DNA from: Myxococcales bacterium
GTDB taxonomy: Bacteria > Myxococcota_A > Polyangia > Palsa-1104 > JAEUJZ01
Direction of reading: 5' to 3'
Length of the DNA stretch: 64,000 nucleotides
Assembly: GCA_016794365.1 (NCBI GenBank)
Contig: JAEUKB010000025.1
Location: 244,693 to 308,692, forward strand
The position numbers and the translations under genes are program-made. Positions 4,636 to 36,454 of this stretch are shown here, in pieces. Each line of letters starts with the position of its first letter. Position 1 is the stretch's first letter. The notes below the pieces were generated by a model. It saw nothing but the letters and a program-made list of their open reading frames with translations, searched no databases and was not told the DNA's origin.

Positions 4636-4717
4636 CGGACTTTCCGTCGCGAAGTGAATGCCAGATCCGGGCAGGGGAAACGCTGCAAAAATCGCCAATA
4701 CGATCCCGGCACAGCGC

Positions 4718-15766: not shown

Positions 15767-16198
15767 CTACAGCAGCCTGCGACACTCCCGTACTTCGCTG
15801 GCGCGGACTCCACTGCGGCCAAGGGGAATCGTTATTCTCCACGGCAGAAGTGGTGCGACCAGCATCTTCCAGCTTGCCGCAGGTGTGGTGTACAGAAAGT
15901 ACAGACCCAGCGGCTTTTCTTTGTCGTGCTTGATCCAAACGCTGCGATATCGACCGGCCTGTGGATCGATGATGACTGAACGCAAAACAGTTGCATCTGG
16001 CGTCACCACCAGCGCGGACACAGAGGCGTGAGACTCACTGCGCTGCTGCTGCTCATCAACCGAGCGAACCAGCACGCGCAGCGGTCTTCCTTCATTGGTG
16101 CTTGGATCAGACAGCAGCGTCAGTTTGACATAGCCGGGATAGCAGCCGCCAAGGATCAGCACAGCCAAGCCGAACAGCCGTAGCCCAATAAGAGGCAT
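15767..16198 (-). CDS. tssJ: T6SS outer-membrane lipoprotein TssJ-like
   Basis: About 143 aa. Signal plus lipobox LAVLILGGC, then the beta-rich region YPGYVKLTLLSDPSTNEGRPLRVLVRSVDEQQ typical of TssJ/SciN. Start placed at MPLIGLRL to avoid overlap with tssM. Confidence 0.55.
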   Translation of the reverse strand: MPLIGLRLFGLAVLILGGCYPGYVKLTLLSDPSTNEGRPLRVLVRSVDEQQQRSESHASVSALVVTPDATVLRSVIIDPQAGRYRSVWIKHDKEKPLGLYFLYTTPAASWKMLVAPLLPWRITIPLGRSGVRASEVRECRRLL

Positions 16199-16211
16199 AG
16201 AAAAAGACTCT

Positions 16212-19200: not shown

Positions 19201-20135
19201 GAGCCAATCGCAAGATCGGTCAGTGCAGAGACAAAGCTGGCCGTCGGTGATAGGAACTGATCGGCACCACGCAGAAACTCGACAATGCTCTCAAAGGAAG
19301 ACACCGGCAGCGTCGTCAACGCACGCGGCAGATAGCGCTCATAGTGCGTCATCGACTCGCTTAGATCGCTGTGTGGATCCGCACCAACAGAGAGCTCTAG
19401 CGGGGCCTGTTCTTTGGCCAAAAAGCGCGCCAGATCCGAATAGCCACGCAGTCTGTCCATATGGGTCAGACAGATGCGAACGCGGCCAGTGCTGCCATAG
19501 GTTTCAGACAGCACATTGATCTTGCCGCGCAGAAGCTGGGCTTGCTGACGCAGCTGATCGGGGGGCTGGGTGATGAGCAGAGGCGCAGACAGAACTACAA
19601 TCACCGTCGGAATCTGCTCGACTTCCAGGCTCTTCCACAGCTTGGTCAGCGCGTCGTTGTAGCTCTGCGCAGTGCCATCCTGAATCGCAGAAGAGAACTC
19701 CTCAACCAGGACTTGGCTGCCCAGATAAAGCTGTAGGAGTGGGTCTGCGGTGTAGCTCGGAATGAACTGACTGGTCTGTCCTTGCCAGTCTACTTTGCGA
19801 CTGATGAGCGCACTCTTTCCTGCACCTGTGTTGCCAAAGACAACGAAGTGCGGAAGCTCTGGTGTCGTCGCCCGAACACCGCTGGGAAGTCGAGACTGGA
19901 AGCGTTCCCAGATGTCGCTGAGCCGCGTCTTGGTCATGCTCTGCGCTGGGGTTACGTACGCGGTTCCTTCTTCGCGACGCTTGCGCAGCTTGAACCACCA
20001 AAATAGTAGGACGGCTCCGGCCACAATCAGCAGCACAAACAGAGCCGCCAGGACATAGACATAGGTCGGTCGGGAAGTGGCTCCTGCCGATCCGTCCGTC
20101 GAGGCTGTGGCCAAAGGAAGAAGCACAGACAGCAC
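16212..20135 (-). CDS. tssM: T6SS membrane complex protein TssM (IcmF family)
   Basis: 1307 aa. N-terminal TM helices, Walker A FGNTGAGKSALISRK, a long periplasmic IcmF-like region. Sits immediately after tssL. Confidence 0.85.
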   Translation of the reverse strand: MLSVLLPLATASTDGSAGATSRPTYVYVLAALFVLLIVAGAVLLFWWFKLRKRREEGTAYVTPAQSMTKTRLSDIWERFQSRLPSGVRATTPELPHFVVFGNTGAGKSALISRKVDWQGQTSQFIPSYTADPLLQLYLGSQVLVEEFSSAIQDGTAQSYNDALTKLWKSLEVEQIPTVIVVLSAPLLITQPPDQLRQQAQLLRGKINVLSETYGSTGRVRICLTHMDRLRGYSDLARFLAKEQAPLELSVGADPHSDLSESMTHYERYLPRALTTLPVSSFESIVEFLRGADQFLSPTASFVSALTDLAIGSLRPEVQGIYFASLAADEQISNPFTPPPQVRSTALGSRLARWLRPFGIRPVHAMLALLMLCLGLFGLTYVTRRHHVVVEAASEANLTFDQAVVRAQTAHNSGESDVVRRAERSASQSLLATSEAEQRFRPFHLIYRTDKKHSERLFIESIRKGYLLPSLERAIRQRARDKILGALVALYATKDNTLGSLIKASATDWSTDLNVPRDTLLDYIQYSTDPWTEVAIATLPPFPPESLRYSLSDLSPWKAFIYDVHNAIARPYITRAELSALQQRSAGLIEGMLALRRAAQLRQWYRNLAEESPLDMLKLFGQEVGILTPDPWLLDQKDPMERLLRMVSDSNITTEQAGTKSLYQLLRWLNETSESASAKKSSEHLLSDSYRFLFPAEGSAIDISRRDWEELLTRSRKRTFSMDESAPHPTEGPVRTKRCSKLGKKRGLLPPCKVTARSPASSGSAKKLIDRPTALPLWSQEEFTPKLAALLTGDELPAVGLSDVYNRVVYHREVLPLVTELKKALGGHRNLSAEERISLSRAVQKELARYSQGYCAALLEYHLGYRISAVSPSQLHSELVDIIKPGSRFVARLKTLVDNVTLQGLEEPYLRPLATCIADFRPIVELMTPKSQAPAAKSDPKAAGQPDAAQGTRPTSDTASSKVEGLATFHEAVAKLIADLDRAPTASTDKSSSGSDKGDRADKSAATQDKSAVLTSKLSALARSALAMHEGSEESSLAKAEQFLDRAGIAGPLRRPFLAPFLAVHQLGSTEIEQVFAQHWKEVMQPQITPLMSRFPFQRGAEREVAPSDLDVLSERRGPLFADLRSLYAVAVTERGESYVAKSGALGTLRLPKDMLPTMNKLAKLSRALFSADGNRQPLQLAIRGLPGPQSSSGSTAQSALAYLQIGKASAYGFNQQSSATTLQVEWWAQGAAVIGVERTVAKTGRKHTQTLEVTDSAWSLYRLLQRSTLDGTGVSTWRIIGDGPDETQIIRFAITPDPWELFGEHAQ

Positions 20136-20147: not shown

Positions 20148-20732
20148 TTACTTTCCGGCCACTCGGCGAAGGCCGCGCAGCGTGTCTTCCAAGCGATACA
20201 GTAGTTCAAACACCGTACCTGCCGAGGCATGACGCATCGGATGATAGGGTGGCGGAGTCGCTCCCGGGGTGAGCCTGGCGATGCGAACACGAAGCGGCTC
20301 AATGATTCCTGACAGCATCGAGACGCGGGGTCCCAGCTCTGTACGCAGAACGAACAGGAGCTTTTCGAGCAGCTCCTCTGGATTTTCCTGCGGAGCATCT
20401 GCCAGATCGATCAGCTCTTCGGCATCTTCGAGGTTCTCAGGATCGGAAACCTCATCCAGGATCTCGTCTACCTCTTCCTGATCAAACCCTTCTTCGGAAT
20501 CTGTCTTCAGCGTGTCTGCATCCGCAGCCTTTGGAGCGTGCTCAGTTGGATCGCTGCCGTCGGTTTTGCGCTGGCTCTGTTTGCTCTTTCGCTTTTTCTT
20601 TCCTGCGCTTGCTGTTGTCTCTCCCGCGATGATGTGATGGAGCGTATCGACCGCGTTGTGCGGCTCTGTCTTCCGTCCCCACAACGGACCCACACGCTGA
20701 CTGTTTAGTAGCTCACTGAAGTTCACTTTCAT
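20148..20732 (-). CDS. Hypothetical charged protein between tssL and tssM
   Basis: 194 aa, with a Lys-rich (KKKRKSKQSQRK) then strongly acidic (EEVDEILDEVSDPENLEDAEELIDLADAP) centre. No TagF (GxFGKLP) or FHA motifs found. Confidence 0.3.
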   Translation of the reverse strand: MKVNFSELLNSQRVGPLWGRKTEPHNAVDTLHHIIAGETTASAGKKKRKSKQSQRKTDGSDPTEHAPKAADADTLKTDSEEGFDQEEVDEILDEVSDPENLEDAEELIDLADAPQENPEELLEKLLFVLRTELGPRVSMLSGIIEPLRVRIARLTPGATPPPYHPMRHASAGTVFELLYRLEDTLRGLRRVAGK

Positions 20733-20795: not shown

Positions 20796-21557
20796 TCACA
20801 GGTTGCTCAGCACGATGATGGCCAGTGCTGCCAGTGACAGCGTCGTCAGCGCCACACCGTAAGGAATCAGTCCGCGCCAGTTGACGCGCTTCCGCAGAGG
20901 CGTCACCGCTTGTGGACTCTGCTCTGGACTCTGCGCGGCTTCGATCGGACGATCGGTCTGCACGCTCGCTTTTGATCCAGCAGATCTGCGCTCACTGCGG
21001 ACTCTGTGGCTTCTGCGCCTGCGCTTTCTGCTGCCGTCGCGGGTGCTACCAGTACCAAGCTGTTCGGCCAGCAGGGTCCGATAGCGCTGGACCTTGCCTC
21101 CTGACTCTCCGAACTTGCCAACGAACCCAGCGGCCAGACAGAAGTACAGCACTTCAAAGACCATCGAAGGAGTGTCTGGCTTGTCTAGTCTCTCATCGAC
21201 AAAGTCGTAAAATACATCGCCGCCATAGTTGATTTGAAACAGCTCAGATTGCAGCAGTGGCCAGCTTGTCTGCTGAGCTTTGGGAAGACGAATCATGACC
21301 ATCTCATCGCAGAGCAGAACCAGAGGAAACATCACCAGATACGTCTCATTTTCAGTCAGTTCGCGGTGCAGCTGATCGCGCAGCGTATCGAGCTTGCTAC
21401 GCAGCTCGCCATGCAGTCGTTGCAAGATCGATGGTTCGATCGGAAGCGCAGCAGAGCGCTCTCCAAATCGGGTGCTTTCGACGGACAGAGAGCGCTCCAG
21501 CAAGCGATGAATGTCGATCCGAAGCGATAAGATGCTGTTCCAGTGACTAAGCTTCAT
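20796..21557 (-). CDS. tssL: T6SS membrane protein TssL (DotU family)
   Basis: MFPLVLLCDEMV, FEVLYFCLAAGFVGKF (DotU signature LEvyylcLslGF.G.y), C-terminal TM VALTTLSLAALAIIVL. Start overlaps the tssF stop. Confidence 0.8.
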   Translation of the reverse strand: MKLSHWNSILSLRIDIHRLLERSLSVESTRFGERSAALPIEPSILQRLHGELRSKLDTLRDQLHRELTENETYLVMFPLVLLCDEMVMIRLPKAQQTSWPLLQSELFQINYGGDVFYDFVDERLDKPDTPSMVFEVLYFCLAAGFVGKFGESGGKVQRYRTLLAEQLGTGSTRDGSRKRRRRSHRVRSERRSAGSKASVQTDRPIEAAQSPEQSPQAVTPLRKRVNWRGLIPYGVALTTLSLAALAIIVLSNL

Positions 21558-23200
21558 CGTCCGTTTTGCCTTTCACTGGGAAGCTGTTCGCGGCTGTGAT
21601 GACGAACCACTTCCGCGCGTCCTTCATAGTTCCATGCATCCAAAAGGCGCTGAAGCTGCTGACAGAACATGTGCCACAGCGGCTCTTCTTCTGCGCGAAC
21701 ATCGGGAACCAGCGCGTGATAGATGTGACGGATTCCTGCGCCGCGCACTGTCTCGTCGGGAGTCAGCTCAACCACCCAGTCGCGAATGCGCGAAAGGAAG
21801 CCGCGATACGGTCCACTTGATCCCGCTTCTAGCATGACAAACAGGGCGTTCAGATCTTCCAGATCAAGCACCGCTTTCATCTTCAGCGAGAGCAAACGCA
21901 GCAGCGCTGCTGCATCCTGACCTAGTTGGGAGTCTGCTCCGCGCTGCATCGGACCCAGTGCGGAAAGCTCGACCCCAAGCATGCTGCGCTCGCGAAGGGT
22001 GATGCTCAGTCGTCCACTTAGATGCTCGCTCAGCGACGGTTGATGCCAGACTCCTTCCACCGCGATGCGCACAGGTTGAAGCAGTGCTTCTGGCATCCGC
22101 AAGATCAGTGCAGCGCGTGGTAAGGATCCTCGCTCATCGGACTGCTGCTCCAGCTCAAAGCTTGGAGTCTTGTTGCTAAGAGTGACCGGAGGAATCGGAA
22201 CCAGTCCATCATCACTTGCTGCAAAAACGCCGGTGATGTGATGCAGTGCGTAGCTCTGATCCGGATGCACAAAACGAACCGGATAGGAGTCCTGGGTTCC
22301 GTCGCAGTCTATCGGCTGCGCAGGTGCCTTCCGTAGTGCCGAAATAGGGACCGTAAAGGGCCTAAAGATCTCGCGATACAGCACAGGACGATGTGGGTAG
22401 TCTGCATCCAGATCAAAGCACAGAGACATCCGGGTAAATGGTCGCGGCGATGCCGGAATCGCAACATGAATGGTTAGCTCTTGCTGCGGAAAGTGTAGAA
22501 AGCTACGAACCGCTGCGAGTGGATTGCGATCATCTGCTTCATATGGTTCATCATGGTACGTTCCAAAGTGAACCGGACAGGTGGGACCGTCTGCGCGATC
22601 ATGAACCGGCTGATCGTACAGCACGAACGCGCGCTGCATGTGTCTCTGTAGCTGCTGATGAACCGTGAGCGCGGCGAGATAGTCATCCAGATAGTGAATC
22701 CCAAGTCGCATCCGTCCCGGTGGTTCACTGCGCGGAATCCGCGAAGAGAAGGTCAACACCAAGCGATAGCCTGTCCCACCGCGCAGCAGCTCACAGCGAT
22801 CGAGCGTCAGTGGAAGCACGCGCAGATCCATTCGGGTCATGAAGCTGGCTAGAAATCCGTCCGCACACTGGACTTGCAACTCGCTTCCAGCGGGCAGATA
22901 GACCGGCTCTGTCATCCGCGCTGTGACTTGGGCTTCCAGGATTCCCATCGCAGGAAGGGGCTGGAGCAGCGACTGAAAGTAGCCACCTAGGAGTCGTCGC
23001 CACGTTGCGCTCAGGTTGCGCAGGACCGCATGTCGAGTCCGCACCGCAGAAAATGCCAGCACCTCGATCAACCGCTGCACATCGGGGTCTTGGGGATCGA
23101 GTACACCGATCCCCTGACTGCTGCTGTAGTTCCGTCGAAAAGACTCCAGTCCGCGTAGCTCATCTAGGAGTCCGAGATCGAGCGTGTGATTAGCTGCCAA
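21554..23200 (-). CDS. tssF: T6SS baseplate protein TssF (ImpG family)
   Basis: The N-terminal LDELRGLESFRRNYSSS...LDPQDPDVQRLIEVLAFSAVRTRHAVLRNLSATWRRLLGGYFQSLLQPLPAMGILE matches the TssF consensus (Y.rEL.yLRe....F...P.....DP.VERLLEGfAFL.AR). 548 aa. Confidence 0.75.
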   Translation of the reverse strand: MAANHTLDLGLLDELRGLESFRRNYSSSQGIGVLDPQDPDVQRLIEVLAFSAVRTRHAVLRNLSATWRRLLGGYFQSLLQPLPAMGILEAQVTARMTEPVYLPAGSELQVQCADGFLASFMTRMDLRVLPLTLDRCELLRGGTGYRLVLTFSSRIPRSEPPGRMRLGIHYLDDYLAALTVHQQLQRHMQRAFVLYDQPVHDRADGPTCPVHFGTYHDEPYEADDRNPLAAVRSFLHFPQQELTIHVAIPASPRPFTRMSLCFDLDADYPHRPVLYREIFRPFTVPISALRKAPAQPIDCDGTQDSYPVRFVHPDQSYALHHITGVFAASDDGLVPIPPVTLSNKTPSFELEQQSDERGSLPRAALILRMPEALLQPVRIAVEGVWHQPSLSEHLSGRLSITLRERSMLGVELSALGPMQRGADSQLGQDAAALLRLLSLKMKAVLDLEDLNALFVMLEAGSSGPYRGFLSRIRDWVVELTPDETVRGAGIRHIYHALVPDVRAEEEPLWHMFCQQLQRLLDAWNYEGRAEVVRHHSREQLPSERQNGR

Positions 23201-26200
23201 GCGGTCCTCCCTTCTTCGCTAGCGCTGCGCTGATTCCTTGGGTCAGACTGCTGACTGTGATTCCTACAGCACTTGGCACGACGGCGTCCTTGGCCGACTT
23301 GACATCTCCTTGCATTGCGCTCTGTCCGCTCGAAGCCAGTGTCTGTTTGAGAGCTGCCTTGGCATCGCTTGCGAAGGGAATCCCAGCACTTGTGACAGCG
23401 CTTGCAGCCGTGACAGCAGAAGAGAGCCCACTTGTGGCTGCGCTCTGCGCTGTACTGCCCAACGCAGAGCTTGGTGCCGCAGACTTCGGATCACTATTGG
23501 CCAACGGAGCGCTCTTGGCTTGAGAGTCCGTCTTGGCTTGGGAATCCGTCTTGGCTTGGGAATCTGTCTTTTCTTTGGCGTCCGTCTTCGACGCTGGCGC
23601 GCTCGACTTGGAGCCTGTCTTGGTCAGCAGATCTTTCATGAACGTGACCAGCTGCTGCTGCACTTGCAGGACATTCTGTCCGTAGTTGAGTAGGCTGCTC
23701 AGCTCTGTCTCGGGCAGGACAGTCTTCGGCTTGCTGGCCATCGAAAAGGCACCCGCTGTCTCATAAGGCTGCTGACCAGGAATCATCATTCCTTGAAACA
23801 GAGAGCTCATCAGCGTCATGGTATCGATCGGATTGAGTGTGACGCTGAGTCCTTTGGAGGACGTGCCATAGGTCTTTTCCAGCACCTTCGCAAACTGCGT
23901 TCCGTAGTCTCCCGCAAACAGAGAGCCTTTCTTCTTCATCTCATCCAGCAGCGTTCCTCCCCCGCCGCCCATGCCTGCTTTGCTGCCGAGCTGATCCATT
24001 CCTGGCATTCCGCTCGCTCCGTTCATGCCAGGAACTCCACTCGCTCCGTTCATGCCAGGAATTCCGCTCGCTCCGTTCATGCCAGGAATTCCGGACATGG
24101 GACTTCCTGTCATGAAGGAAGACTCTGATCCGCCGCCCCCAAGGAGCGATGCAGTCGGATTCCCATTCATCAGCAGAGAGGCTGCTCCCGCACCAGACAG
24201 CGCAGCGTTTCCCGCCGGTAATGATGTGAGTCCGCTTCCGCCCATTCCGCCGCTGTTTGGCTGTAACGTCGCTGCTGCCGCAAACGGATTGCTCAGTCCG
24301 CCGAATCCACCGGCAGCACCAGCGAGACTTGCGACTCCTGCACCAGCTTGTGCCATGGATGATGCAGCGGAGCCACCTGAAGCGAAGCCACTGCCTGAAG
24401 CGAAGCCACTGCCTGAAGCAGAGCCACTGCCTGAAGCAGAGCCACTGCCTGAAGCTGTCGGTGCTTTGGCGGCGGAACCTCCGGTGGAAGGAGTCATTCC
24501 CGGAAGTGTTGTCAAGCTAGGAAGCGTGGCCGCAGTGGCCGTCGGATTGAATCCTTCGGTTGCAAAGAACGGACTGCCTGTGCTCAGTGCGCCGCTGCTT
24601 CCGATTGGTGACGCTCCGGTGAACGATCCGGCTCCTCCCATTCCACCTGCGGGCTGTGTACTGCTCGATCCGAGCTGCGCAGCGGAGCCACCCAATGCGG
24701 AACCCGCAGTCGATGCGGATGGCGCAGCTTGCGCAGACGATGGCATCTGTGAAGCAGACTGTGAAGCAGACTGTGATGTAGATGCAGCGGACTGTGACGC
24801 CGCAGCAGGAGATGAAGACGATGCAGAAGAGGAGCCCGAAGACTCCTGACCCGCAGCGAGTCCTCCCAGAGCGGACAGACCGCCTCCGATCAGACCCAGC
24901 GTGCCACCCAAAAAGCTGGCATCTGGGCGCAGCAGCTTGAGCGCACTCTGCGCCGCAACACCAAGCGGTCCCAGCGCGGTAAATGTCGATTGAAACGCAT
25001 AGTTTACCGCGTCATCAATTCCGCCATCATCCGCTGCACTGCCCGAACCGCTGCCCGAACCACTGCCCGAACCACTCGCAGAAGGAGTCGAAGCTCCTGG
25101 AGCAGCTGGACTTACGGACTGTGAACCAGGCGATGAACTGTTTTGTGAACTGTTTTGTGAGCCGCTCTGTGAACCGCTCTGTGAACCACTCTGTGAACCG
25201 CTCTGTGAACTTTGCGGAGAGCCAGAGCCCGTCGCACCAGGCAGTAGCTCACCCAGCAGTCCTTTGGGCAGAAGTCCTGGCAGAACCTGTCCCATGTTTG
25301 GCATCCCAAGCTGCCACTGATTGCGCAGAAGACCACCCAAGGTAAGCAGCGTATTGAGCTGCGATTCCGTCGGTGCTTCACTTCCGCCTGTGCTGCCTGC
25401 ACCCTGTCCTCCGGCCTGGCTGGTTGCTGGGGAAGGACTTGCTGGCTGGCTCTGTAGGGTGGTTCCTGGAATCGCCGCACCAGCCAGCGCTGCGGTGCCA
25501 CTGGGTGATGAGGACGGACTCTGGCCCATGCTTTGGCCCACGCTTTGGCCCATGCTTTGGCCCATGCTTTGGCCCATGCTTTGGCCCGTGCCTTGACCGA
25601 CTCCTTGTGCCGCTCCCGGTGTTGCACTCTGCGCTGTGCTCTGCGTCGAGTTCTGCGCCGGACTCTGTGCTGATCCCTGGGTCTGGCTTTGCGTTGCGCT
25701 GGCTGAAGACTTGGCATCTGCCGTCGGCAAAAAGCCCGGTGGCAGGAGAGCTGCGGCCAAGACGCCCAGCTCACTTGATGCCGACAGCAGGCTCCCGATT
25801 CCCGGCACTTGACCAAGGACAGACACAAAGCCCACTGGCCCAAGCAAGTTGGACATTCCGGTCAGTAGCTGCGGCATCAGCTGTGGAGTCAGCGCGGCAA
25901 GCTGCTTTTCATCCAGCTGGGAAATCAGGCTCTGTACAGACGGAAGATCGCTGGATCCACTGGCAGTCTTGCTGGCCCCAGATGTGCTCTGGCTGGATGT
26001 ACTGGATGGTGTACTGCCTGGACCGCTCAGGCTCTTTTGCGTACTTTGAGAGTTTTGACTACTTTGAACATTCTGACTGCTCTGATTGTTCTGATTGCTC
26101 TGAATATTTTGAGAATTTTGAACATTCTGACTGCCCTGACTCTTACTCTGGCTACTCTCACCGTTCTGGCCACTCTGGCTGCTGTTGGTACTGCTCTTTT

Positions 26201-27896
26201 CGGACCCTGACTGCGCACTCTGTCCAGAGTCGAGCTTCTTTTTTTGGACCTTTCCCAAGATGGTCGCCAGGATCGAGTTGTTGTCCTGTAACAGCGTGCC
26301 CGACATGCTGTTGCCTGCCGTGCTCTTCGGCGGAATCATGGCATCCATCAGAGAAGAGACTGCATCAGAGTCCCCCGGCTTGAGCCCTGGCAGCAGCGTG
26401 GTGGTGTCATCCTGTCCACCGCCCAGCAGCGGTGTATCCAGCATCTTGATTGCAGCCATCGCAACATCACCGATCGTTTTGGTGAGTACGTTGACGCCGC
26501 TTAGCATGTCGCCTGCCGTCAGGTTTCCGCTCTGAATCTTGGACATCATCTTGCTGCTGTTGTCCAAGTAGTTCGATGCAAAGAACCCAACTGCGACCAG
26601 CGGAAGAAGCTCGGGATAGGCCATGGCCAGTGGCATGGCGGCGTTGCTCAGGCTCTTGATCTGCGTGCTGGCGGACTTGGCGGCGCTGCTTCCGAACTGC
26701 AAACCTGTTGCACTTGGATTCATGCCGCTGGAAAACGGATTGCTCAGGCTGTCGCCGAAGCTGACGTAGTTGCTCCAAGAGTTCATCGGTGCCGACATGC
26801 CACCGATTTGCATCATCGAGCTGGCGCTGGACATGCCCGGAATCGCAGACATCCCAGAAGTGGGAGAGCCGGACATACCACTCTGTCCGCTCATACCACT
26901 CTGTCCAGCCATGCCACTCTGTCCGCCCATCCCGCCCATGCCACCAGGACTGCCGACGCCAATGGTGGGACCGAGGGTTCCGGTGGCTCCCATGTTGAGG
27001 AGTCCTCCGGTGTCCGGGGTTCCGCTCTGTCCGCCCATGCCTGCGCCGCTGTTCATTCCGTAGGTGTTGCCACTGCTCGATAGTGAGTTGGCACTTCCTA
27101 CGCCCGCTCCGGCCCCTGCTTGCGCACCACCTTGGGCACTCTTTCCTGCGCTGTTGCCACTGCTTGCCGCAGAGCCTTGTGGCGGCCCAGGAATCGCTCC
27201 GAACTGTAGATTGGCAGAGGTAATCGAAGTCGTGGGTGCAGAGATCGAAACAGAGACTCCGGTCAGGCTGATGTCCGATCCAAGGAGCTGAACACCTGTA
27301 GCACCACCGACGACAGCGACACCGCCTCCTACTGCGAGCATGGTGACGCTCTGCATGGCGTTCATGGACACCGAAAGACCGTTTAGACTGACTCCGTTTA
27401 GTCCTGATGCTGTGACCGATCCGGGCGAGCTAAGCGACAGATCCGCAAGGCTGGAAACGCTGGTCTGTCCCATGCTCTGTAGGCTGGTTCCCAGCGTAGA
27501 AGTCATGCGGATGTTTTCCGCTTGGACTGAAAAGTTGCGCGCATCGATCGAGACAGAGTCCGCAGTTTGGGTGATGACGCTGTCCCCCTGTGCGCCACTT
27601 ACGCGCGTGGTCAGCTTGACACCATCCATCGTGATCGACTGCTGATTGATGCCGCTCGCATCCAGCACTTCGATCGTCAGTCCGACCGTCTTGTCCATGA
27701 ACATGCGCAGATACAGCGGAAGCTGGGCGACCGGCTGCGCAGTGCCACCTTGAGGGGGAGTCGATCCACTCTGCGTCGATCCACTCTGCGTACCGGGGCC
27801 GGTCGTATTCTGCGTCGGTCCACTCTGCGTACCGGGGCCGGTTGTATTCTGCGTCGGTCCGCTCTGCGGAGACGTGGTGTTCATTGGGTCCGGCAT
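23190..27896 (-). CDS. Giant (1568 aa) Ser/Gly/Gln/Met/Ala-rich repetitive protein of unknown function
   Basis: A single uninterrupted ORF between tssF and the 704-aa gene. The N-terminus has a beta-solenoid-like stretch (VSLNGLSVSMNAMQSVTML..GVSVSISAP). Long tracts of GMGGQSGMSGQSG, SQNxQS, GSGSGS and PEAKPLPEAKPL follow. The last ~250 aa are non-repetitive. Confidence 0.6.
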   Translation of the reverse strand: MPDPMNTTSPQSGPTQNTTGPGTQSGPTQNTTGPGTQSGSTQSGSTPPQGGTAQPVAQLPLYLRMFMDKTVGLTIEVLDASGINQQSITMDGVKLTTRVSGAQGDSVITQTADSVSIDARNFSVQAENIRMTSTLGTSLQSMGQTSVSSLADLSLSSPGSVTASGLNGVSLNGLSVSMNAMQSVTMLAVGGGVAVVGGATGVQLLGSDISLTGVSVSISAPTTSITSANLQFGAIPGPPQGSAASSGNSAGKSAQGGAQAGAGAGVGSANSLSSSGNTYGMNSGAGMGGQSGTPDTGGLLNMGATGTLGPTIGVGSPGGMGGMGGQSGMAGQSGMSGQSGMSGSPTSGMSAIPGMSSASSMMQIGGMSAPMNSWSNYVSFGDSLSNPFSSGMNPSATGLQFGSSAAKSASTQIKSLSNAAMPLAMAYPELLPLVAVGFFASNYLDNSSKMMSKIQSGNLTAGDMLSGVNVLTKTIGDVAMAAIKMLDTPLLGGGQDDTTTLLPGLKPGDSDAVSSLMDAMIPPKSTAGNSMSGTLLQDNNSILATILGKVQKKKLDSGQSAQSGSEKSSTNSSQSGQNGESSQSKSQGSQNVQNSQNIQSNQNNQSSQNVQSSQNSQSTQKSLSGPGSTPSSTSSQSTSGASKTASGSSDLPSVQSLISQLDEKQLAALTPQLMPQLLTGMSNLLGPVGFVSVLGQVPGIGSLLSASSELGVLAAALLPPGFLPTADAKSSASATQSQTQGSAQSPAQNSTQSTAQSATPGAAQGVGQGTGQSMGQSMGQSMGQSVGQSMGQSPSSSPSGTAALAGAAIPGTTLQSQPASPSPATSQAGGQGAGSTGGSEAPTESQLNTLLTLGGLLRNQWQLGMPNMGQVLPGLLPKGLLGELLPGATGSGSPQSSQSGSQSGSQSGSQSGSQNSSQNSSSPGSQSVSPAAPGASTPSASGSGSGSGSGSGSAADDGGIDDAVNYAFQSTFTALGPLGVAAQSALKLLRPDASFLGGTLGLIGGGLSALGGLAAGQESSGSSSASSSSPAAASQSAASTSQSASQSASQMPSSAQAAPSASTAGSALGGSAAQLGSSSTQPAGGMGGAGSFTGASPIGSSGALSTGSPFFATEGFNPTATAATLPSLTTLPGMTPSTGGSAAKAPTASGSGSASGSGSASGSGFASGSGFASGGSAASSMAQAGAGVASLAGAAGGFGGLSNPFAAAATLQPNSGGMGGSGLTSLPAGNAALSGAGAASLLMNGNPTASLLGGGGSESSFMTGSPMSGIPGMNGASGIPGMNGASGVPGMNGASGMPGMDQLGSKAGMGGGGGTLLDEMKKKGSLFAGDYGTQFAKVLEKTYGTSSKGLSVTLNPIDTMTLMSSLFQGMMIPGQQPYETAGAFSMASKPKTVLPETELSSLLNYGQNVLQVQQQLVTFMKDLLTKTGSKSSAPASKTDAKEKTDSQAKTDSQAKTDSQAKSAPLANSDPKSAAPSSALGSTAQSAATSGLSSAVTAASAVTSAGIPFASDAKAALKQTLASSGQSAMQGDVKSAKDAVVPSAVGITVSSLTQGISAALAKKGGPLGS
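24371..24456. repeat. 18-bp tandem repeat (gaagcgaagccactgcct, ~4.7 copies) inside the giant gene
   Basis: Direct reading of the sequence. Other tandem arrays are nearby: 21-bp x3 at ~24020-24090, 12-bp x6 at 25525-25596, and (ctgN)n-type units at ~26040-26140. Confidence 0.85.
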
Positions 27897-27899
27897 GAC

Positions 27900-29937
27900 T
27901 TACTGCGGACCTCGCGGAGTAGACGGAGTAGTGGGTCCACTCGGACTTGGCGAAGGTGTACTACTTGGCGGAGTCGTAGACGGACTTGTCTGTGGACTTG
28001 TCTGTGGACTTGTCTGTGGACCTGTCTGTGGACCTGTCTGTGGACCTGTCTGTGGACCCGGTGGGCGCGGTCCGCTTGTACCCGGCTGCGTCGTGGCTGG
28101 GACTCCTCCCGGTAGCGGCGGAGAGCCAGTAGGAGGCACTGCGGGCATTCCCAGCGGCACCACAATCTTGCGTCCAACCAGGGTTCCTGTTGTAACGCCA
28201 ACCGGAGGGATTCCCACCTGAAGCAGCAGGTTCCCTTCCGCAATCTTGACCAGCTCACTGTCGAACTGATTCAGTCGCTCGATCTCAAAGACCGGCTTTT
28301 CATTTTCATAGGAGTGCTGAACCGATGTGCGATTGATCGGCGTCTTGCCCAGCAGGAGCTGATCTCCTTGCGTCTCCATCGGGAGCTGCGCGGTCGCTCG
28401 CCACTCGCGGAACTGACAGATTTCTGCGCGATCAAAGTACAGCTCAACCAGGATGCGCTCGTATTTATATAATGGAAAATAGAACTGCCCAGGAATGGTG
28501 TTCGGGTGATATGGTGTTGTAATGATTTGATTCGCAAATAGCGGGATCATGACTTTGTACTTCGGCAGCATATTGCGAGGGTCAGGATAAAACTGATACG
28601 TCTCCTCTGTGCTGGTTCCTACTTCGCTAACGACGCGGCCTTCGATGGCTACTGGATATTTTGGTAGAATATATGGAGGAATGCGAAGCTCGGGATCACT
28701 TGCCAGCTCTAAAAATACAATTGTGTGGCAATGAAACTTGGCTGGAACCAGGCCATCATACACTTGGCGAATGTCTGTTTCGTCGCTGCGTCCGCTGAGT
28801 GTGATGCGATAGACACGACATAGCTCGCGCTGTGCTTCAAATGGAATTGCAATATCTTCTGCTGAAAAATCAAGCAAATCGAGCTGAAAATCAACACCTA
28901 CATTTGGGAAATATGGCTTGCTTGGAAATGTTCGATAATGAATCAAAAACTCTGGGCGTGGCATCATGAATGCCTTGGTTCTTTTCTGAAACTCACTTTC
29001 AAATTCGCTTTGAATTTCTGTGTTGAACAGATGATCGTGGCGAATTCCTAGCACTTTGTCGATATTATCTATCGGACGATTCTGGACCGCGCTTACAAAG
29101 TCGTTTAGGACGTTTTTTTGATATCTTGGATAGGATGGGTAATACGCATAAATACGATCAACATCGTGCGGAATGATGTCGAAGGGAGTCGGTCGCGGCT
29201 TGATTCCGTGAATCTGATAGACCTTGCGGGTGTAGTCGTACTGCCAGACCTTCCCCATCTCATCCAGACGCCACATCAGCAGGTCGTAAAAGCTGGCGCG
29301 CTCACTTTTGCGATGTTCGGAGTCACAGCCCAAAAAGATCATGGGCTGCACGATTCCTACATCCAGATCGGGATACTCCACCATGATGTGGGTGGTGCGA
29401 TGCGCATCGATCACTTGACGGAGAGACTTCTGCGTAAACAGCTCGCACGGAAAGTGTTGTCGCCACAGCACCTGCGCAGGATCCGCAAAGCGGAGAAAGT
29501 AGCGCCGATAGGACAACAGATCGTTTCCGAGCTTGGCAACATGCTCGGTCAGTGCGCTCTCTGTGACCAGTCCGTTTACCTCGATCGGAGTCGGTGGAAT
29601 ATTGAGATCTTGATCCGCGCGGAAGGCCTGAATCGTCATCCGCAGCTTGAGCATCGACTTCTGGCGAAACATCGTGATGATGCCATCGCGATCATCGCTC
29701 TGTAGCTCTGCGCTATCGGATACCAAGATCGTGAGCGATCCGGAAAAGCCACTGCTGCGCAGATCGAGATCAAAGTCGATCACGTTGTGACCACTTAGCA
29801 GGATCGGACGCGGAAGGGTGACAGAGCTTAGCTCGATGCGAAAGATGAGTCCTTCGCGATAGCTCTTGGCCGCGTCACACAGCGCATCAAACAGCGGTCT
29901 GTCTTCACGGATGGTATTACGCGCCACGACGCACCTC
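27900..29937 (-). CDS. Large unknown protein (~679 aa) between tssE and the giant gene; Tyr/Phe/Lys-rich body with Pro/Thr-rich C-terminal tail
   Basis: The ORF track gives 27900..30014. A GTG at 29937 preceded by GAGAGG gives a 21-nt overlap with tssE instead of 98 nt. The body is visibly more AT-rich (28300-29200) than its neighbours. The tail is (GPQT)6 then SPQTSPQTSPSTTPPSSTPSPSPSGPTTPSTPRGPQ. No family motif recognised. Confidence 0.5.
27981..28052. repeat. 12-bp x6 tandem repeat ggac(t/c)tgtctgt encoding the (QTGP)n tail
   Basis: Direct reading of the sequence. Confidence 0.9.
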
Positions 29938-30342
29938 TCGCTCGGTGTCTGGCTCGATCTGTACGTCGCCGCTGCACAGATGAAACAGGATCTTGAGCTG
30001 GCACGGAACCGCACCCTTGCGGGTCTTTAGGGAGCCGCGCAGATGGATGTGAAGACGCAGCTCTGCATCGCGACCTTTGCAGGACAGATCACGCAGTCGC
30101 AGACGTGACTCTAGCCGGAAAATGACATCTTCAATCTCACGCAAGATGGAAAGCTGCGCACCTTTGTTGCCCTGCTGCGCCAGATAGTCAGCGACGCCAT
30201 ACTGAATCAGTCTTGAGCTGTATCCTGGCCGCGCGCAGAGCAGGTTCTGTAGGTTCCGCATGACAGACTGCAGCTCATCATCTTGCGGAGGCGACTCTAG
30301 GAATCGGTTGAGGAATGACATGCGCAGCCTTCCTATCGCCAA
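29917..30342 (-). CDS. tssE: T6SS baseplate protein TssE (gp25/GPW lysozyme-like)
   Basis: 141 aa. SFLNRFLESPP...LQSVMRNLQNLLCARPG...YGVADY matches the gp25-like pattern, with tssK immediately upstream. Confidence 0.7.
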   Translation of the reverse strand: MAIGRLRMSFLNRFLESPPQDDELQSVMRNLQNLLCARPGYSSRLIQYGVADYLAQQGNKGAQLSILREIEDVIFRLESRLRLRDLSCKGRDAELRLHIHLRGSLKTRKGAVPCQLKILFHLCSGDVQIEPDTEREVRRGA

Positions 30343-31577
30343 AACAGAAAGAGGTTGGCTCGCTCCAGAACCGGATGGACATACGCAGACAGAGATCCTT
30401 CACGCATCGCGTGATCCCACTCTTCACCGCCTTGCAGAAGATAGAAGTCAACCTCTGGACCGAAGGTGTGCTGAAACGGCGGACGCTCGACCAGCTTGAA
30501 CGGAACGCCACGCAAGACCAAGCGATGCACCAGCGCAAGCCGCGAGGTACACGACAGCTTGATATCATCCATCACAATGCGATCGTGCAGCGTGGGACGC
30601 TGAATCAGCAGATAGACTTCCTGCGCATCTTTGACTTCTTGCGGAAGTCCGCTGCATGTAAACAGACCGTTGCTCTTCTGAAAGCGCAGGTGCGTAGATC
30701 GAACGTACACAGGCCGCAGTGCTTGCTGAAGCAGACGGAAGACCTGTCCCATCGTCCGTCCCAGATCATCATGGGAATAGGGCAGGGCAGTGTGATCGGG
30801 CTGCACTTCATGGAAGCAGCAGGTCTCAAAGTACAGCTCGCGCAGCGCTTGATGCAGACAGTACGGATGAAGCGATACGCGATTGGATAGATCACCAAGC
30901 AGGCTCTCTACTTTGTAGATCGCTGCCAAGCTGCGCCGAATGGTCGCCAGTCTGTCCGGTCGCAAAAAGGTGTCCTGAAGCTGCGCGGCAAGCTGCGGAA
31001 TCAGGGCTCTTAACTGCGCAGACAGAAGCTGTAGGGACGGCTGAAGATGTGGCGTGTTTCCGACGCTGAGAAGAGGCGGAATGGCTGACGCTTGCAGGCT
31101 CCAGCTTCCTGCGACTCCTTTTTCAAACTCACCCAGTCGCAAGGATGCAACGCTGCGCTCGATTTGATCGCTGATGCTCAGGGTTGCGCGCGAAAGGACT
31201 CGCTCGACCGTGCGCGGATCACTGTCATAGACGCGATTCCCTTGCGCAGAGACTGCATCAGACAGAAGGTGCAGATACACGCTGACTCGCGTGGCAGATG
31301 TGGCAGCAAGCGACAGCGGAGCCACCGTGCAGCTACCCGGAACACTGATGACAATTCCTTCGGGAAGGACTGCGGTCAGCTCTCCGATCGACAGCACGCC
31401 ATCACGTAACAGCGACTCATGAAAGGAAAGCTGCGCAATCCCGTAGTGAGGAAGTCCTCCGACCCGTGCGCGAAGCTCACTGGCTGATGCCGTAAGCTCC
31501 TGCAAGGCCACAAAGTGCTCGGGCAGGACCGTCTGCCCCAGATACCATCTTACGGGTGCGATCTTCAGCGTGCTCAT
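30333..31577 (-). CDS. tssK: T6SS baseplate protein TssK
   Basis: MSTLKIAPVRWYLGQTVLPEHFVALQE matches the TssK N-terminus (M.K..W.EG..L.PQHFQQ). About 414 aa. The alternative start at 31670 adds 31 non-conserved residues. Confidence 0.75.
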   Translation of the reverse strand: MSTLKIAPVRWYLGQTVLPEHFVALQELTASASELRARVGGLPHYGIAQLSFHESLLRDGVLSIGELTAVLPEGIVISVPGSCTVAPLSLAATSATRVSVYLHLLSDAVSAQGNRVYDSDPRTVERVLSRATLSISDQIERSVASLRLGEFEKGVAGSWSLQASAIPPLLSVGNTPHLQPSLQLLSAQLRALIPQLAAQLQDTFLRPDRLATIRRSLAAIYKVESLLGDLSNRVSLHPYCLHQALRELYFETCCFHEVQPDHTALPYSHDDLGRTMGQVFRLLQQALRPVYVRSTHLRFQKSNGLFTCSGLPQEVKDAQEVYLLIQRPTLHDRIVMDDIKLSCTSRLALVHRLVLRGVPFKLVERPPFQHTFGPEVDFYLLQGGEEWDHAMREGSLSAYVHPVLERANLFLFWR

Positions 31578-31685
31578 CGCTTTGCTTGCCACTCGCCACG
31601 CGAGTAAGCGGTCTATGTAACGCGCCACAGAACAGGGAATCGGATCCAAACGGAACGACTCCCGACACACAGATTCCGACTCTGC

Positions 31686-32327
31686 TTACGTCGCTGGACC
31701 CTGTCGTCCCCAGTTCTTGGTGACCTTGCGAGTGGCCGAGGTCGCAAACAGCAGCGACTGAACCTCTGGCTTGGGAACCACCTTGAGCGTCAGCTTGTAG
31801 TTCTTCGGCGACTCGACATCGGTTCCGGCCTCTGCATCGATCTCCAGTCCGAGCGCTTCGCCGTCTTTCTGAATCTGTCCGCGCACCGATCTTCCAGCTG
31901 CGGCATCGGTTGCAGCCTGCGCAGAGTTTGAAAATGCAGCGTAGTACTTTTTGGAAAGCGGATCGTATTCATAGACCACGAATCCCACTTCACAATCGAC
32001 ATCGATCATCGATGCGTAGACCAGAGCGCTGATCGCTTGCTTGCTGGCAATCGAGACCTGCGCTTCAAAGATCAGCGGATCGGTATCACCGAGCGCCCAG
32101 GTGACGTTGGCCAGGACGCCAACAACGGTGAGCGCACCGATGGTTGCGGTGGCATTTGCGGTCAGTCCGGTTCCGGTGACTGCGGCCATCGGGCTGTTCA
32201 CCGTGAAGTCTGGCGTAAACGTCTCCATACCGATCTTGAGCGAAGTCAGAAAGCCAATCGTTGCTTGCTGATCTTTCTTAAAGTCGAAGCCCTGCTTCAC
32301 ATTCATCGCGCGGTTGTACTCGGCCAT
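31686..32327 (-). CDS. Candidate inner-tube (Hcp-like) protein, divergent, 213 aa
   Basis: Occupies the position directly downstream of tssB-tssC where hcp usually sits. Beta-rich, no TM. No Hcp motif could be confirmed by eye. Confidence 0.3.
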   Translation of the reverse strand: MAEYNRAMNVKQGFDFKKDQQATIGFLTSLKIGMETFTPDFTVNSPMAAVTGTGLTANATATIGALTVVGVLANVTWALGDTDPLIFEAQVSIASKQAISALVYASMIDVDCEVGFVVYEYDPLSKKYYAAFSNSAQAATDAAAGRSVRGQIQKDGEALGLEIDAEAGTDVESPKNYKLTLKVVPKPEVQSLLFATSATRKVTKNWGRQGPAT

Positions 32328-32389: not shown

Positions 32390-33880
32390 CTATCCCAGCC
32401 GTGACTCCAGCCGCAGCTCGACATCCATTCCTTCAAACTGAATGTGCGGCAGGATCGAGATCTTGCAGTCGTAGTATCCGAGCCGACCGGGCATCGGATT
32501 GACCTGGACTTGTGCGGCGCGGAAGGGGAAGGTCCGCATCGTCATATCGTCGGGACGGACTTCGGTGGTGACATACTGCTCAAGCCACGTTGACAGCACG
32601 CTCTGTACGTAGCCTGCGGTCGCGACATCACCGATGTTGTCACGCATGATGCTCTTGACGTAGTGCGCGATGCGGGCAATCGAAAACGTATAGGACAGGT
32701 TGCAGACAAGCTGCGCGTTTTCAGAGTCCTTCGGATCCTTGAACTTCTTCGGACGCTTGATGGACTGTGCGCTAAAGAACGTCGCTTCACCGGCTCCCTT
32801 GCGATAGACAAGGGGAATGATTCCGTTTCGCGAGTACTCCAGTTCGCGGTAGTCAGGAATGCAGATCTCGACGGGAATCCGCATCTCATCTTCGCCCCGG
32901 ATGTTGAACATATCAACCGGCAGACCGCTGATCATTCCGCCGCCTTTGGGACCGCGAATGTACTGACACCAGCCGGTGTTTTCAAACGAGCGAATTACAT
33001 TGCGCGCAAACAGCAGTGCAGAGCTTCCCCACAGATAGTTGCCGTGCTCTCCGCTGGTCTGTTCATGAAACGGAAGACCTGGACTGGGATTGGTTTCCGG
33101 GCTCCAAGGGAGTCGCACCACGTAGCGCGGGAAGGTCAGACCGATGTACGCACCCTCTTCGGATTCACGCAGAGACTGCCACTGAGAGTAGCGCGGCTGG
33201 CTGAGCAGACCGTCGAGATCTTTGATCGCTTCGACCTGCTGCATGTTGCCACAGCCCAAAAATTGCGGAGAGATCGATCCAATAAACGGTGAGTGACTGG
33301 CCGCCGCGATCTTCGACATGCTGCGCAGCCAGAACAGATCACGCGCTTGGGTTGTGAAGTCATACAGACCAATCAGCGCGCCGTAGGGACGACCACCGTA
33401 CTGATCGTACTCTGCGATGTAGACCTTCTCGAACAGCGCACTGCCAAAGATGTCGCTCGAGTTGTTTTCAAAGTCTTCAAACAGCTCGTCTTTGCTGACA
33501 TCAAGCAGCTCGACGGTGACGTTCGACTGGAAGTTGGCGTTTTCGACCAGCTGATCGATTCCGCGCCAGGTCGCTTCCATGTGCTGAAACTGTTGATGGT
33601 GAAAGATCTCGTTGAGCTGATCATTTACCATCGTGTCGATCTGGCGAACGACATCCAGGACTTTTCCTTTTTCGTAGCGACCACCGCTGTGATCGGTGTT
33701 GTACAGAATCGCTGCGAGTCCCGAGAGCATGCGATCTTCCAGCGAGACATCTTCATGCACCTCGCCAAACGTATCGCGAATCATCGGAACCAAGCTCACG
33801 TTCTTGGACTCCATATCCATGGTTGCGACAATCCGCTTGAGGATGGAGCCACTCTCTGTTGCGACGGGGGGTTGTGCCAT
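32390..33880 (-). CDS. tssC: T6SS contractile sheath large subunit TssC (VipB)
   Basis: 496 aa, directly downstream of tssB. Conserved-looking core (FENANFQSNVTVELLDVSKDEL..., GRPYGALIGLYDF, LTFPRYVVRLPW). Confidence 0.8.
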   Translation of the reverse strand: MAQPPVATESGSILKRIVATMDMESKNVSLVPMIRDTFGEVHEDVSLEDRMLSGLAAILYNTDHSGGRYEKGKVLDVVRQIDTMVNDQLNEIFHHQQFQHMEATWRGIDQLVENANFQSNVTVELLDVSKDELFEDFENNSSDIFGSALFEKVYIAEYDQYGGRPYGALIGLYDFTTQARDLFWLRSMSKIAAASHSPFIGSISPQFLGCGNMQQVEAIKDLDGLLSQPRYSQWQSLRESEEGAYIGLTFPRYVVRLPWSPETNPSPGLPFHEQTSGEHGNYLWGSSALLFARNVIRSFENTGWCQYIRGPKGGGMISGLPVDMFNIRGEDEMRIPVEICIPDYRELEYSRNGIIPLVYRKGAGEATFFSAQSIKRPKKFKDPKDSENAQLVCNLSYTFSIARIAHYVKSIMRDNIGDVATAGYVQSVLSTWLEQYVTTEVRPDDMTMRTFPFRAAQVQVNPMPGRLGYYDCKISILPHIQFEGMDVELRLESRLG

Positions 33881-33921: not shown

Positions 33922-34545
33922 TTAGGTTTCCTGCGTCGGCTGCGTGAGCGCTTTTTGCGAGCTAGGCAGCTTGTAGTCCGATAGCGCAGCCAGTTCCTTT
34001 TGCAGGGTCTTGAGCTGCTCTGGACTGCTCCAGATTTCTTGGATGACGCGACGTAGATCTTTGCGATTGTCGATGTTCGACTGCATCTCTAGCAGGAGCT
34101 TTCGTAGCAGCAGCAGGGAACGAATCTTGGGAACGTTGTCCGCGACATTTCCCGGTGTGAAGGAGCGGCGATTCTTGATCGGAATGCTCACTTCAAGGGT
34201 GGAATCGCTGCCTGGATCAATGCGGTTTGCCACCTTGAAGTTCAGGCTCATGCGCATGTTTTCCATGACGCTGTCCAGGTTCTTGTCGGTGAGCGAGCGC
34301 AGCCTGCGCGACTCCAGATCGACCTCGCGATCGGTGGCAGAGCCGCTGGACAGATCACCCAGTACCATCACGCGGAACGGCAGCTCCAACATCTGAGCGG
34401 TGCCTTGGATCTCTGTACGGTAGCGAAGGTTGATGCGAGAACGTGGGATGTCATCTTGAATCGACACGCCGATACTCCTACGAAGTGGTGTTTCCTTTGG
34501 GATTGCAACCGATATGCCAGCAGTTCGGAGTGCCCAAGGAATCAC
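33922..34545 (-). CDS. tssB: T6SS sheath small subunit TssB (VipA); GTG start
   Basis: INLRYRTEIQGTAQMLELPFRVMVLGDLS matches the TssB core (ELPFkmLVlGDftg). About 207 aa. Confidence 0.8.
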   Translation of the reverse strand: MIPWALRTAGISVAIPKETPLRRSIGVSIQDDIPRSRINLRYRTEIQGTAQMLELPFRVMVLGDLSSGSATDREVDLESRRLRSLTDKNLDSVMENMRMSLNFKVANRIDPGSDSTLEVSIPIKNRRSFTPGNVADNVPKIRSLLLLRKLLLEMQSNIDNRKDLRRVIQEIWSSPEQLKTLQKELAALSDYKLPSSQKALTQPTQET

Positions 34546-34840: not shown

Positions 34841-36454
34841 GTGAAGACCGCGCACAGTGATATTTCTCCGTCGGCACGAACGGCTCCCAATCCACTGGCA
34901 GAGCAGTTTGATTCTACTGAAGCAGATGTCCTTGCACTGGTGGTGCTGTGGTCCGCGCGTGAGCCTTCTCGCGTAGGAGAAGTCGCACTCCTTCCCGCAG
35001 AGTATCCAGTGTGGCTGTTCGGTCGCGATCCCGAGCAGCCGATCACAGAGTCTGTTCAGCGCACCAGCGCAGCCAGTGGCTTTGCTGATTCAGAAGAAGT
35101 ACGTCCTTCATCCAGCAGTCCGGCCAGTCGTGCGCAAGGCGTTGTGCGCTTTGTCAGACAGCGACCGGACGGCGTGTCTTCTGGAGAGCCTCCGCGCGCG
35201 CTCGCTGGAGAGAGCATTTCCCGACTTCAGCTTCATATGAGCCATCGTGAAGAGGGACTGTTTACCCAGAACGTCGGACGCTGCGCGCTGCTGGTGAATG
35301 GTCAGCCAACTCAGGCGGCGATGATTCATCCTGGGGATACGCTGTATCTGCGCAATCAGCTGCTGCTGTTGTGTATTCGCAGACCGATTCGACTTCAGCC
35401 GCTGCGCGCGTATCCCAGAGACAGGCTGCGTGATTTCGGGATTCCTGATGTAGACGGAATGATAGGAGAAAGTCCTGCGATGTGGCATCTGCGCGAGCGG
35501 CTCGCCGCGTGTGCGCGCAGTGATCAGAATGTCCTTGTGGTGGGGGAAAGCGGAAGCGGAAAGGAGCTGGCTGCGCAGGCGATTCATGCGATGTCTGTTC
35601 GTCGTGACAAGCCGCTCGTGGCCGACAACATCTCTGCGATTCCGTCCAGCTTGGCGGTGGCACTTTTGTTTGGTAACAAGCGCAACTTTCCAAACCCTGG
35701 CATGGAAGAGCGCGTGGGACTCATCGGTGCGGCAGATGGATCAATGCTGTTTCTTGATGAAATCGGAGACATGCCCGAAGAAGTTCAGCCGATGTTTCTG
35801 CGGGTGGCTGAGCGCAACGGAGAGTATTTTCGACTGGGTGAAGAGGGTCGAATTCGCCGCTCTGACTTTCGCTTGATCGGGGCCACCAATCGTCCAGAGC
35901 GGATGCGCTACGAGCTAAAGCGTCGTTTCCAGCGAGAGATTCGCGTTCCCAGCTTGAACGAACGGAAGGAAGACATTCCGCTGCTGATTCGTCACCTCCT
36001 GGAAGTACAAGCGCGCCAAGGTGATCCCAATGTCCTGAGCTTTTTTGATCCACAGACCCAAAGACCGCGTGTGCATCCGCTCTTGATTGAGCAGCTTGTG
36101 CGGCACACCTACGTGACCAATGTCTCGGAAGTGGAGTTTCTGCTGGGCCATGCGATGGCAGAGAGCGCAGGGGATGTGCTGACCCCGATTCGCGGTGCGC
36201 TGCCACAGCAGGGACGACCGATGCGTCCAGAGCTGGCTCCGCATCTGCCGCTGCATACCGCGCCACTCCGTCGCTTGGTTCCTGCGATTCCTTCCCCTGA
36301 GCGCGCGCAGCAAGCGCTAGATGACGCGCAAGGCAACGTGGTGAGAGCCGCTGCATCGCTTGGGATCAGCAGACATCAGCTCAACCGCATCATCCGGCGA
36401 CATGCTTTGGAAAAAAAACGCGGACCCAGATCGTCGTCGGCGATCAGCTCCTAA
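34841..36454 (+). CDS. FHA-domain AAA+ enhancer-binding-protein-like transcriptional regulator (NtrC/VasH-like) lacking the GAFTGA motif
   Basis: FHA-like GRCALLVNGQPTQAAMIHPGDTLYL. Walker A VVGESGSGKE, Walker B MLFLDEIGDM, RLIGATN. C-terminal Fis-type HTH. Where GAFTGA should be, the sequence is ALLFGNKRNFPNPG. Confidence 0.75.
   Translation: MKTAHSDISPSARTAPNPLAEQFDSTEADVLALVVLWSAREPSRVGEVALLPAEYPVWLFGRDPEQPITESVQRTSAASGFADSEEVRPSSSSPASRAQGVVRFVRQRPDGVSSGEPPRALAGESISRLQLHMSHREEGLFTQNVGRCALLVNGQPTQAAMIHPGDTLYLRNQLLLLCIRRPIRLQPLRAYPRDRLRDFGIPDVDGMIGESPAMWHLRERLAACARSDQNVLVVGESGSGKELAAQAIHAMSVRRDKPLVADNISAIPSSLAVALLFGNKRNFPNPGMEERVGLIGAADGSMLFLDEIGDMPEEVQPMFLRVAERNGEYFRLGEEGRIRRSDFRLIGATNRPERMRYELKRRFQREIRVPSLNERKEDIPLLIRHLLEVQARQGDPNVLSFFDPQTQRPRVHPLLIEQLVRHTYVTNVSEVEFLLGHAMAESAGDVLTPIRGALPQQGRPMRPELAPHLPLHTAPLRRLVPAIPSPERAQQALDDAQGNVVRAAASLGISRHQLNRIIRRHALEKKRGPRSSSAISS

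Follow-up and report, generated by a model that had tools for sequence, protein, structure and literature searches.

The question raised by this locus is what kind of protein is encoded by the gene, here called X, that lies between tssE and a giant repeat-rich gene in a type VI secretion system (T6SS) cluster of an uncultured Myxococcales bacterium. The stretch analysed, referred to below as the window, comprises 64,000 nucleotides of contig JAEUKB010000025.1 (assembly GCA_016794365.1, positions 244,693 to 308,692). An earlier sequence-only reading had described X as a lower-GC, aromatic-rich gene without recognisable motif, possibly acquired separately, whose product could be a novel baseplate-associated or effector protein. 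Based on the results of this study, X is very probably the hub half of a split T6SS spike, the needle of which is the N-terminal domain of the giant protein.

Gene X occupies positions 27900..29927 of the minus strand and encodes 675 amino acids (aa) between a GTG start and a TAA stop. The maximal open reading frame (ORF) on that strand extends over 27900-30014 (704 aa), and the likely start is the GTG at 29927, which has GAGAGG 6 nt upstream and overlaps the tssE stop codon TAA (29917-29919) by 11 nt; gene calls in relatives agree with this start (M[AP]RN...). The position after tssE, the (GPQT)n repeat in a Pro/Thr tail and the distance of 3 nt to the giant gene were all found as the sequence-only reading had given them, with the minus strand as the coding strand. 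The richness in aromatic residues was likewise confirmed, since Phe, Tyr and Trp make up 11.5% of the folded core and 15.3% of residues 226-500, which is the maximum of the locus; the family mean is 10.4%.

When X was compared with Pfam and NCBIfam, no family was retrieved at E values up to 0.1, the VgrG models (Phage_GPD, T6SS_Vgr, TssI) included, and as a single sequence X gave only chance matches in the PDB. The absence of a recognisable motif is therefore true for the family databases but does not extend to profile and fold comparison. A profile of 35 members of the X family had Francisella PdpA (6u9e_A, E 1.6e-5) as its sole PDB match; the alignment covers ~200 residues (PdpA residues 211-414), and in it the most conserved motif of the family, FADPAQVLWRQHFPC, is aligned with FHDPLKALWTKHKPS of PdpA. 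The AlphaFold2 model of X was confident over residues 1-575 (28203..29927, minus strand), and the first three Foldseek positions were taken by PdpA entries (E 3.5e-27), followed by spikes of extracellular contractile injection systems (eCIS) of the Pvc8 type, Salmonella VgrS, P. aeruginosa VgrG1, the MuSo2 hub and T4 gp27. The entire folded core was aligned with hub proteins in the fold comparison. With approximate limits, this core is made up of a gp27-like hub, an OB-fold at aa ~421-510 and five beta-strands at aa ~520-572, with which the beta-prism would start. X is without a long beta-helix needle of its own, and head and needle are split over two polypeptides. As modelled, X is thus a VgrG 'head' consisting of a gp27-like hub, an OB domain and a few beta-strands, with PdpA as its nearest solved relative. 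It is clearly a distant homologue of a known spike component, the PdpA or VgrG head, and can be described as a distant PdpA variant without the lid region that belongs to an unannotated family and is a structural part of the T6SS.

The partner needle is encoded immediately downstream. The giant gene (23190..27896, minus strand) encodes 1568 aa, contains many tandem repeats and matches no Pfam family. Its protein begins with a 55-aa leader rich in Pro, Thr and Gln, which is followed by a beta region of ~180 aa rich in Ser, Thr and Val. A profile was built from this beta region and the ~195-aa proteins encoded directly after X homologues, and it matched spike beta-helices, namely Anabaena All3320 (E 2e-6), VgrG 8gra (E 4e-6) and, over nearly the full length, Francisella VgrG 6u9e_B (E 7.7e-5). 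The VgrG-like beta-helix needle domain lies at aa ~56-235 of the giant (27192..27731, minus strand). It is followed by a low-complexity extension of ~1300 aa rich in Ser, Gly, Gln, Ala and Met, with abundant tandem repeats of 9-39 bp, a few hydrophobic islands and neither a Pfam domain nor a recognised effector domain detected in it. Such an extension is also present in the clade relatives L005, L007 and L008, and the C-terminal ~200 aa are kept in L005 and L008; in most relatives the giant homologue is only ~195 aa long.

The junction between the two genes reads TAA-GTC-ATG (27894..27902, minus strand), i.e., the stop of X, one codon and the start of the giant, so that 3 nt separate the stop from the ATG and both ORFs are in one frame. 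The giant gene overlaps tssF by 11 nt, matching the 11-nt overlap between tssE and X. The translational coupling with the giant that had been proposed fits this arrangement, as the 3-nt gap and the flanking 11-nt overlaps would be expected for coupled translation of stoichiometric partners.

The same association was found well beyond the window. Searches retrieved 188 X homologues, which are usually ~545 aa in length and without exception annotated as hypothetical, and 471 clusters of the family were present among 1.84 billion representative proteins. The closest genome loci belong to uncultured Myxococcales. The order TssK-TssE-X-VgrG-like-TssF was observed in about 55 of the 68 genome loci (L001-L068) from several phyla, and the cluster with its Francisella-type parts recurs in Myxococcota, Methylococcales, Desulfobacterota, Zixibacteria and marine gammaproteobacteria. 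A VgrG-like gene stands directly after X in 53 of the 68 loci, and most of the remaining ones are interrupted by contig ends. As to whether orthologues are always adjacent to tssE, a point raised by the sequence-only reading, TssE precedes X in 41/68 loci, and ~16 further loci show a gap of 370-500 bp after TssK with room for a diverged tssE; another gene order occurs in seven of the 68, five of them from marine gammaproteobacteria.

Moreover, hub and needle are joined in one chain in several members of the family, which indirectly supports a functional link between X and the needle. Fusions were found in P0015/L009 (855 aa), in P0035, P0042 and P0051 (757-769 aa) and in L010. P0255 (1955 aa) carries the hub, a linker of ~300 aa, the needle and an extension in a single chain, and its needle is 35% identical to the domain of the giant (E 8e-26). 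A different fusion is represented by the metagenomic protein P0146 (1119 aa), in which an IglC-like domain is followed by a charged coiled coil of ~350 aa and an X-type hub core. Its IglC-like domain is 31% identical to the 213-aa protein of the cluster (E 1e-22), and P0146 represents a Rosetta-stone link between tube and hub. Francisella PdpA is likewise reported to contact IglC (PMC10653695).

The C-terminal tail of X (aa 576-675; 27903..28202, minus strand) is rich in Pro (28%), Thr (19%), Gly (15%) and Ser (12%) and disordered in the AlphaFold2 model, with predicted local distance difference test (pLDDT) values of 30-40. Within it lies a 12-bp tandem repeat of 6.4 copies (27982..28058, minus strand; Tandem Repeats Finder, 98% matches) that encodes (GPQT)4(SPQT)3. 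Pro-rich tails, 71-174 aa long, occur only in the clade of the window (L001-L008, P0001-P0018); in relatives outside this clade, the protein ends 4-8 residues past the conserved ...LLQV... that closes the core. Sequence divergence is much faster in the tail than in the core (41-51% against ~90% identity in L001), and the perfect 12-bp repeat is missing in the 90%-identical P0001, so the repeat can be regarded as a recent slippage expansion. A low-complexity linker of the same kind lies between hub and needle in fused relatives; in P0015 it measures ~55 aa, in L010 and P0255 it reaches ~300 aa, and in P0035, P0042 and P0051 it is almost absent. The simplest reading is that the X tail and the giant leader most likely represent a tolerated interdomain linker that was cut by a stop and a start. 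In many other X-family members the Pro-rich tail is replaced by a C-terminal extension of 100-800 aa, rich in Ala, Thr and Gln and apparently helical or coiled-coil (P0209, P0213, P0214, P0244, P0271 and P0272, ~1350 aa; P0264, 972 aa; P0072, P0086 and P0101, ~640 aa). These proteins look like 'evolved' hubs.

PdpA, the VgrG head and T4 gp27 with the OB domain of gp5 suggest by analogy that three X chains would occupy the centre of the TssE/TssF/TssG/TssK baseplate, with this trimer serving as the adaptor between the six-fold IglC-type tube and a three-fold needle. The N-terminal beta-helix of the giant would stack, as the needle, on a platform offered by the last beta-strands of X, and X would be fired out together with tube and needle. 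Adjacent expression of X and the giant in one operon, with the 3-nt gap, would favour a 3:3 stoichiometry. The 100-aa tail of X and the 55-aa leader of the giant would then be disordered insertions at the hub-needle junction, resized by repeat slippage.

Several points weigh against the assignment of X as a spike hub with the giant as its needle. The identity between X and PdpA is only 13-14%, and the match at the sequence level covers ~200 residues. X begins at about PdpA residue 200 and is thus without the first ~200 residues of PdpA. The missing region may hold the alpha-helical lid; the TM-score of X is 0.64 against the lidless PdpA model and 0.54 against the lidded one, and the N-terminus of the X model has only two short helices. 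If X binds the needle domain of the giant as proposed, three 100-aa tails and three 55-aa leaders would have to be accommodated at a tightly packed trimer junction. Finally, the hub model does not account for the patch of low GC at third codon positions (GC3) in the middle of X.

This patch bears on the suggestion that foreign DNA was inserted after tssE, with X as a whole, or only its central segment, having been acquired separately as a gene or cassette. The lower GC noted earlier was indeed found, as GC ranges from 0.42 to 0.50 across 28200-29400 compared with 0.578 for the window, and no other 600-bp stretch of the 64 kb has a GC as low as that of 28501-29100 in the centre of X (0.443, z -4.4). 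When X was simulated from its own amino acids with the codon usage of 17 neighbouring genes, the GC expected from the amino-acid composition was 0.508 and that observed 0.437, so that composition explains the dip only in part. In X codons 251-450 (28578..29177, minus strand) GC3 is 0.39 instead of the expected 0.59 (z -6.2), beyond all 69 control windows, and codon choice is thus off that of the locus. A foreign origin would agree with these values. The distribution is nevertheless not patchy, since X fills the same slot in most loci, which come from Myxococcota, Methylococcales, Desulfobacterota and other groups. Clade by clade, the low-GC segment and its flanks show parallel protein identities without a mosaic signal. 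The dip also recurs in L001-L008, among them relatives at 63-83% identity (e.g., GC3 of 0.42-0.50 against 0.64-0.80 in L008), even though comparison with L005 and L008 shows synonymous sites close to saturation. The dip is missing in the clade at 49% identity and in more distant members. Segment-wise identity and the clade-wide dip rule out a recent foreign segment, and separate acquisition, as proposed by the sequence-only reading, is quite improbable. That reading had named uniform GC together with clear homology to a standard T6SS component as what would speak against it; homology to a standard spike component is clear, and GC is not uniform. The dip and its surroundings have equally frequent synonymous differences, which also rules out a conserved nucleic-acid element; promoter-like sites were not found in the patch, and no long overlapping ORF is present in 28580-29180. 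The dip could go back to gene conversion long ago in the ancestor of the clade, followed by slow amelioration; alternatively, codon choice may be under selection, or the segment may be an AT patch to which a protein binds.

Two further explanations concern the relationship of X to its neighbour and its function. X and the giant could be one 'evolved VgrG' that was pseudogenised or mis-sequenced and is broken by a nonsense codon, or whose stop codon is read through in a programmed manner. A single in-frame stop does separate the two in the window (TAA), L001 (TAA), L007 and L008 (both TAG), and fully fused equivalents exist (P0255, L010, P0015). Against this, P0001, which is 90% identical and was seen on six contigs, has its stop at the corresponding position, an ATG follows 3 nt past the stop, TAA is a poor readthrough codon, and the family is mostly split, with a separate needle gene of ~195 aa. 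Moreover, the equivalents of X and the giant are in different frames in L002, L003 and L005, so neither programmed readthrough nor a recent nonsense mutation is supported, and readthrough or fusion as a general mechanism is ruled out. Altogether a broken or read-through gene is very unlikely. Still less probable, to a degree that makes it hardly credible, is that X is a secreted effector or cargo adaptor instead of a structural hub. Such a role could be argued from Francisella PdpA, which is itself secreted with VgrG (PMC5924787), and from the many family members with long C-terminal extensions (proteins of ~640, 970 and 1350 aa). No toxin or enzyme family was found for X in Pfam or NCBIfam, and its neighbours are structural genes; the whole folded core is aligned with hub proteins, and X occurs once per cluster in a fixed structural position. 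Accordingly, of the two roles suggested earlier, association with the baseplate stands, in the form of a central spike hub, and that of a novel protein or effector does not, given the homology to PdpA and the absence of a toxin domain.

The genes around X form a T6SS cluster on the minus strand. Upstream of X are TssB (33922-34545), TssC (32390-33880), an IglC-type tube protein of 213 aa (31686-32327), TssK (30333-31670) and the gp25-like sheath initiator tssE (29917-30342), the stop of which overlaps the start of X. TssE was identified by GPW_gp25 (E 2e-9) and by TIGR03357 (E 2.5e-13; 49.8 bits, slightly below the 53.2-bit cutoff). Downstream of the giant are TssF-like (21554-23200), DotU (20796-21557), a 194-aa protein (20148-20732), TssM-like (16212-20135), an IglE_N lipoprotein (15767-16327), an AMP-binding enzyme (13886-15709), a 486-aa protein (12025-13485) and TssG-like (11068-12021). 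The best match of the cluster sheath is IglB. The 213-aa protein was recognised as an IglC-type tube by fold search alone and is 100% identical to a protein of an NCBI Myxococcales metagenome-assembled genome; sequence comparison of the 213-, 194- and 486-aa proteins with the PDB was uninformative. Canonical VgrG, Hcp, PAAR and ClpV families were not found among the scanned window ORFs of at least 150 aa. The AMP-binding (adenylate-forming) enzyme and the 486-aa protein, which are unusual for a T6SS, are kept in most related loci. Beside tssB a divergent sigma-54-dependent activator (34841-36454, plus strand) is present, at the same position in L001-L008, and its conserved adjacency suggests sigma-54 control of the cluster.

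Among known systems, the PdpA-VgrG spike of the Francisella T6SS, type T6SSii (6U9E/6U9F/6U9G), is the closest, PdpA being the best match of X in both sequence profile and fold. In both cases a gp27-like hub with an OB domain lacks its own needle and a VgrG-type beta-helix partner is encoded separately; Francisella VgrG has 164 aa (PMC5924787), and the partner of X in most relatives ~195 aa. The X cluster also shares with Francisella an IglC-type tube, an IglB-like sheath and an IglE-type lipoprotein. The two differ in that X has 675 aa and lacks the N-terminal region of PdpA, which has 820 aa, and in that PdpA is not known to have a Pro/Thr tail. Gene X is preceded by tssE, but Francisella is not known to have a TssE homologue (PMC10653695), and the host is an uncultured Myxococcales bacterium. 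The cluster thus has hallmarks of T6SSii (an IglE_N lipoprotein, a PdpA-type hub and a head-less VgrG domain), yet also recognisable TssE, TssF, TssG and TssK.

More distant relatives differ in other ways. Unlike canonical VgrG/TssI proteins (E. coli c3393, 2P5Z; P. aeruginosa VgrG1, 4UHV), X has no VgrG match in Pfam or NCBIfam, and its head and needle are separate. Compared with 'evolved' VgrGs, the needle of the giant carries ~1300 aa of low complexity instead of a recognised effector domain. The OB domain belongs to the needle protein in T4 gp27-gp5 but to the hub protein in the X system, as in PdpA. As for the hubs of phages and eCIS (T4 gp27-gp5, Mu gp44 and the MuSo2 43-kDa protein, Afp8/Pvc8), the X cluster differs in having TssK, TssM and DotU, none of which is a phage component.

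According to reviews, T6SSii occurs only in Francisella (PMC10433429, PMC9600919), and our limited literature search, which is no proof of novelty, retrieved no paper on PdpA-like or T6SSii-like systems outside Francisellaceae. It is conceivable, although rather doubtful, that the clusters represent a large, undescribed environmental sister lineage of the Francisella T6SSii, that the clade of the window has a new spike format with Pro-rich junction chains and a ~1300-aa needle extension, and that the GC3 patch is perhaps selected. Such selection might act, for example, through translational pausing in co-translational trimer assembly or through a regulatory binding patch.

Elsewhere in the window, a Ser/Thr kinase gene is apparently split, with Pkinase positions 1-123 encoded at 4017-4760 and positions 124-259 at 10128-11099, both on the plus strand. 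The ~5.4 kb between the halves contain genes for TetR, P450, an F420-type oxidoreductase, an alpha/beta hydrolase and a Peptidase_C39-like protein, and look like an insertion into the kinase gene; no convincing terminal or target-site repeats were found around it. A group II intron reverse transcriptase/maturase ORF (57064-58557, plus strand) overlaps a serine recombinase ORF (58478-59431, plus strand), and low-GC stretches are located near the intron ORF at 59500-60500 and 63300-64000.

For the family, the assignment provides a name, spike hub, for about 470 clusters that are labelled 'hypothetical proteins' and have no Pfam or NCBIfam model, and the small genes after X homologues can be annotated as head-less VgrGs. 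Members of the X family serve as markers of a Francisella-like T6SS lineage among environmental bacteria. A split PdpA/VgrG spike and an IglC-type tube have been treated as peculiarities of Francisella but are now found in free-living bacteria of soil and water, and culturable hosts such as Archangium, Polyangium, Sorangium and Methylobacter are available for their study. The frequent switching between split and fused forms and the disordered insertions at the junction show the plasticity of the spike, and the cluster forms an evolutionary bridge between the canonical T6SS and the Francisella system.

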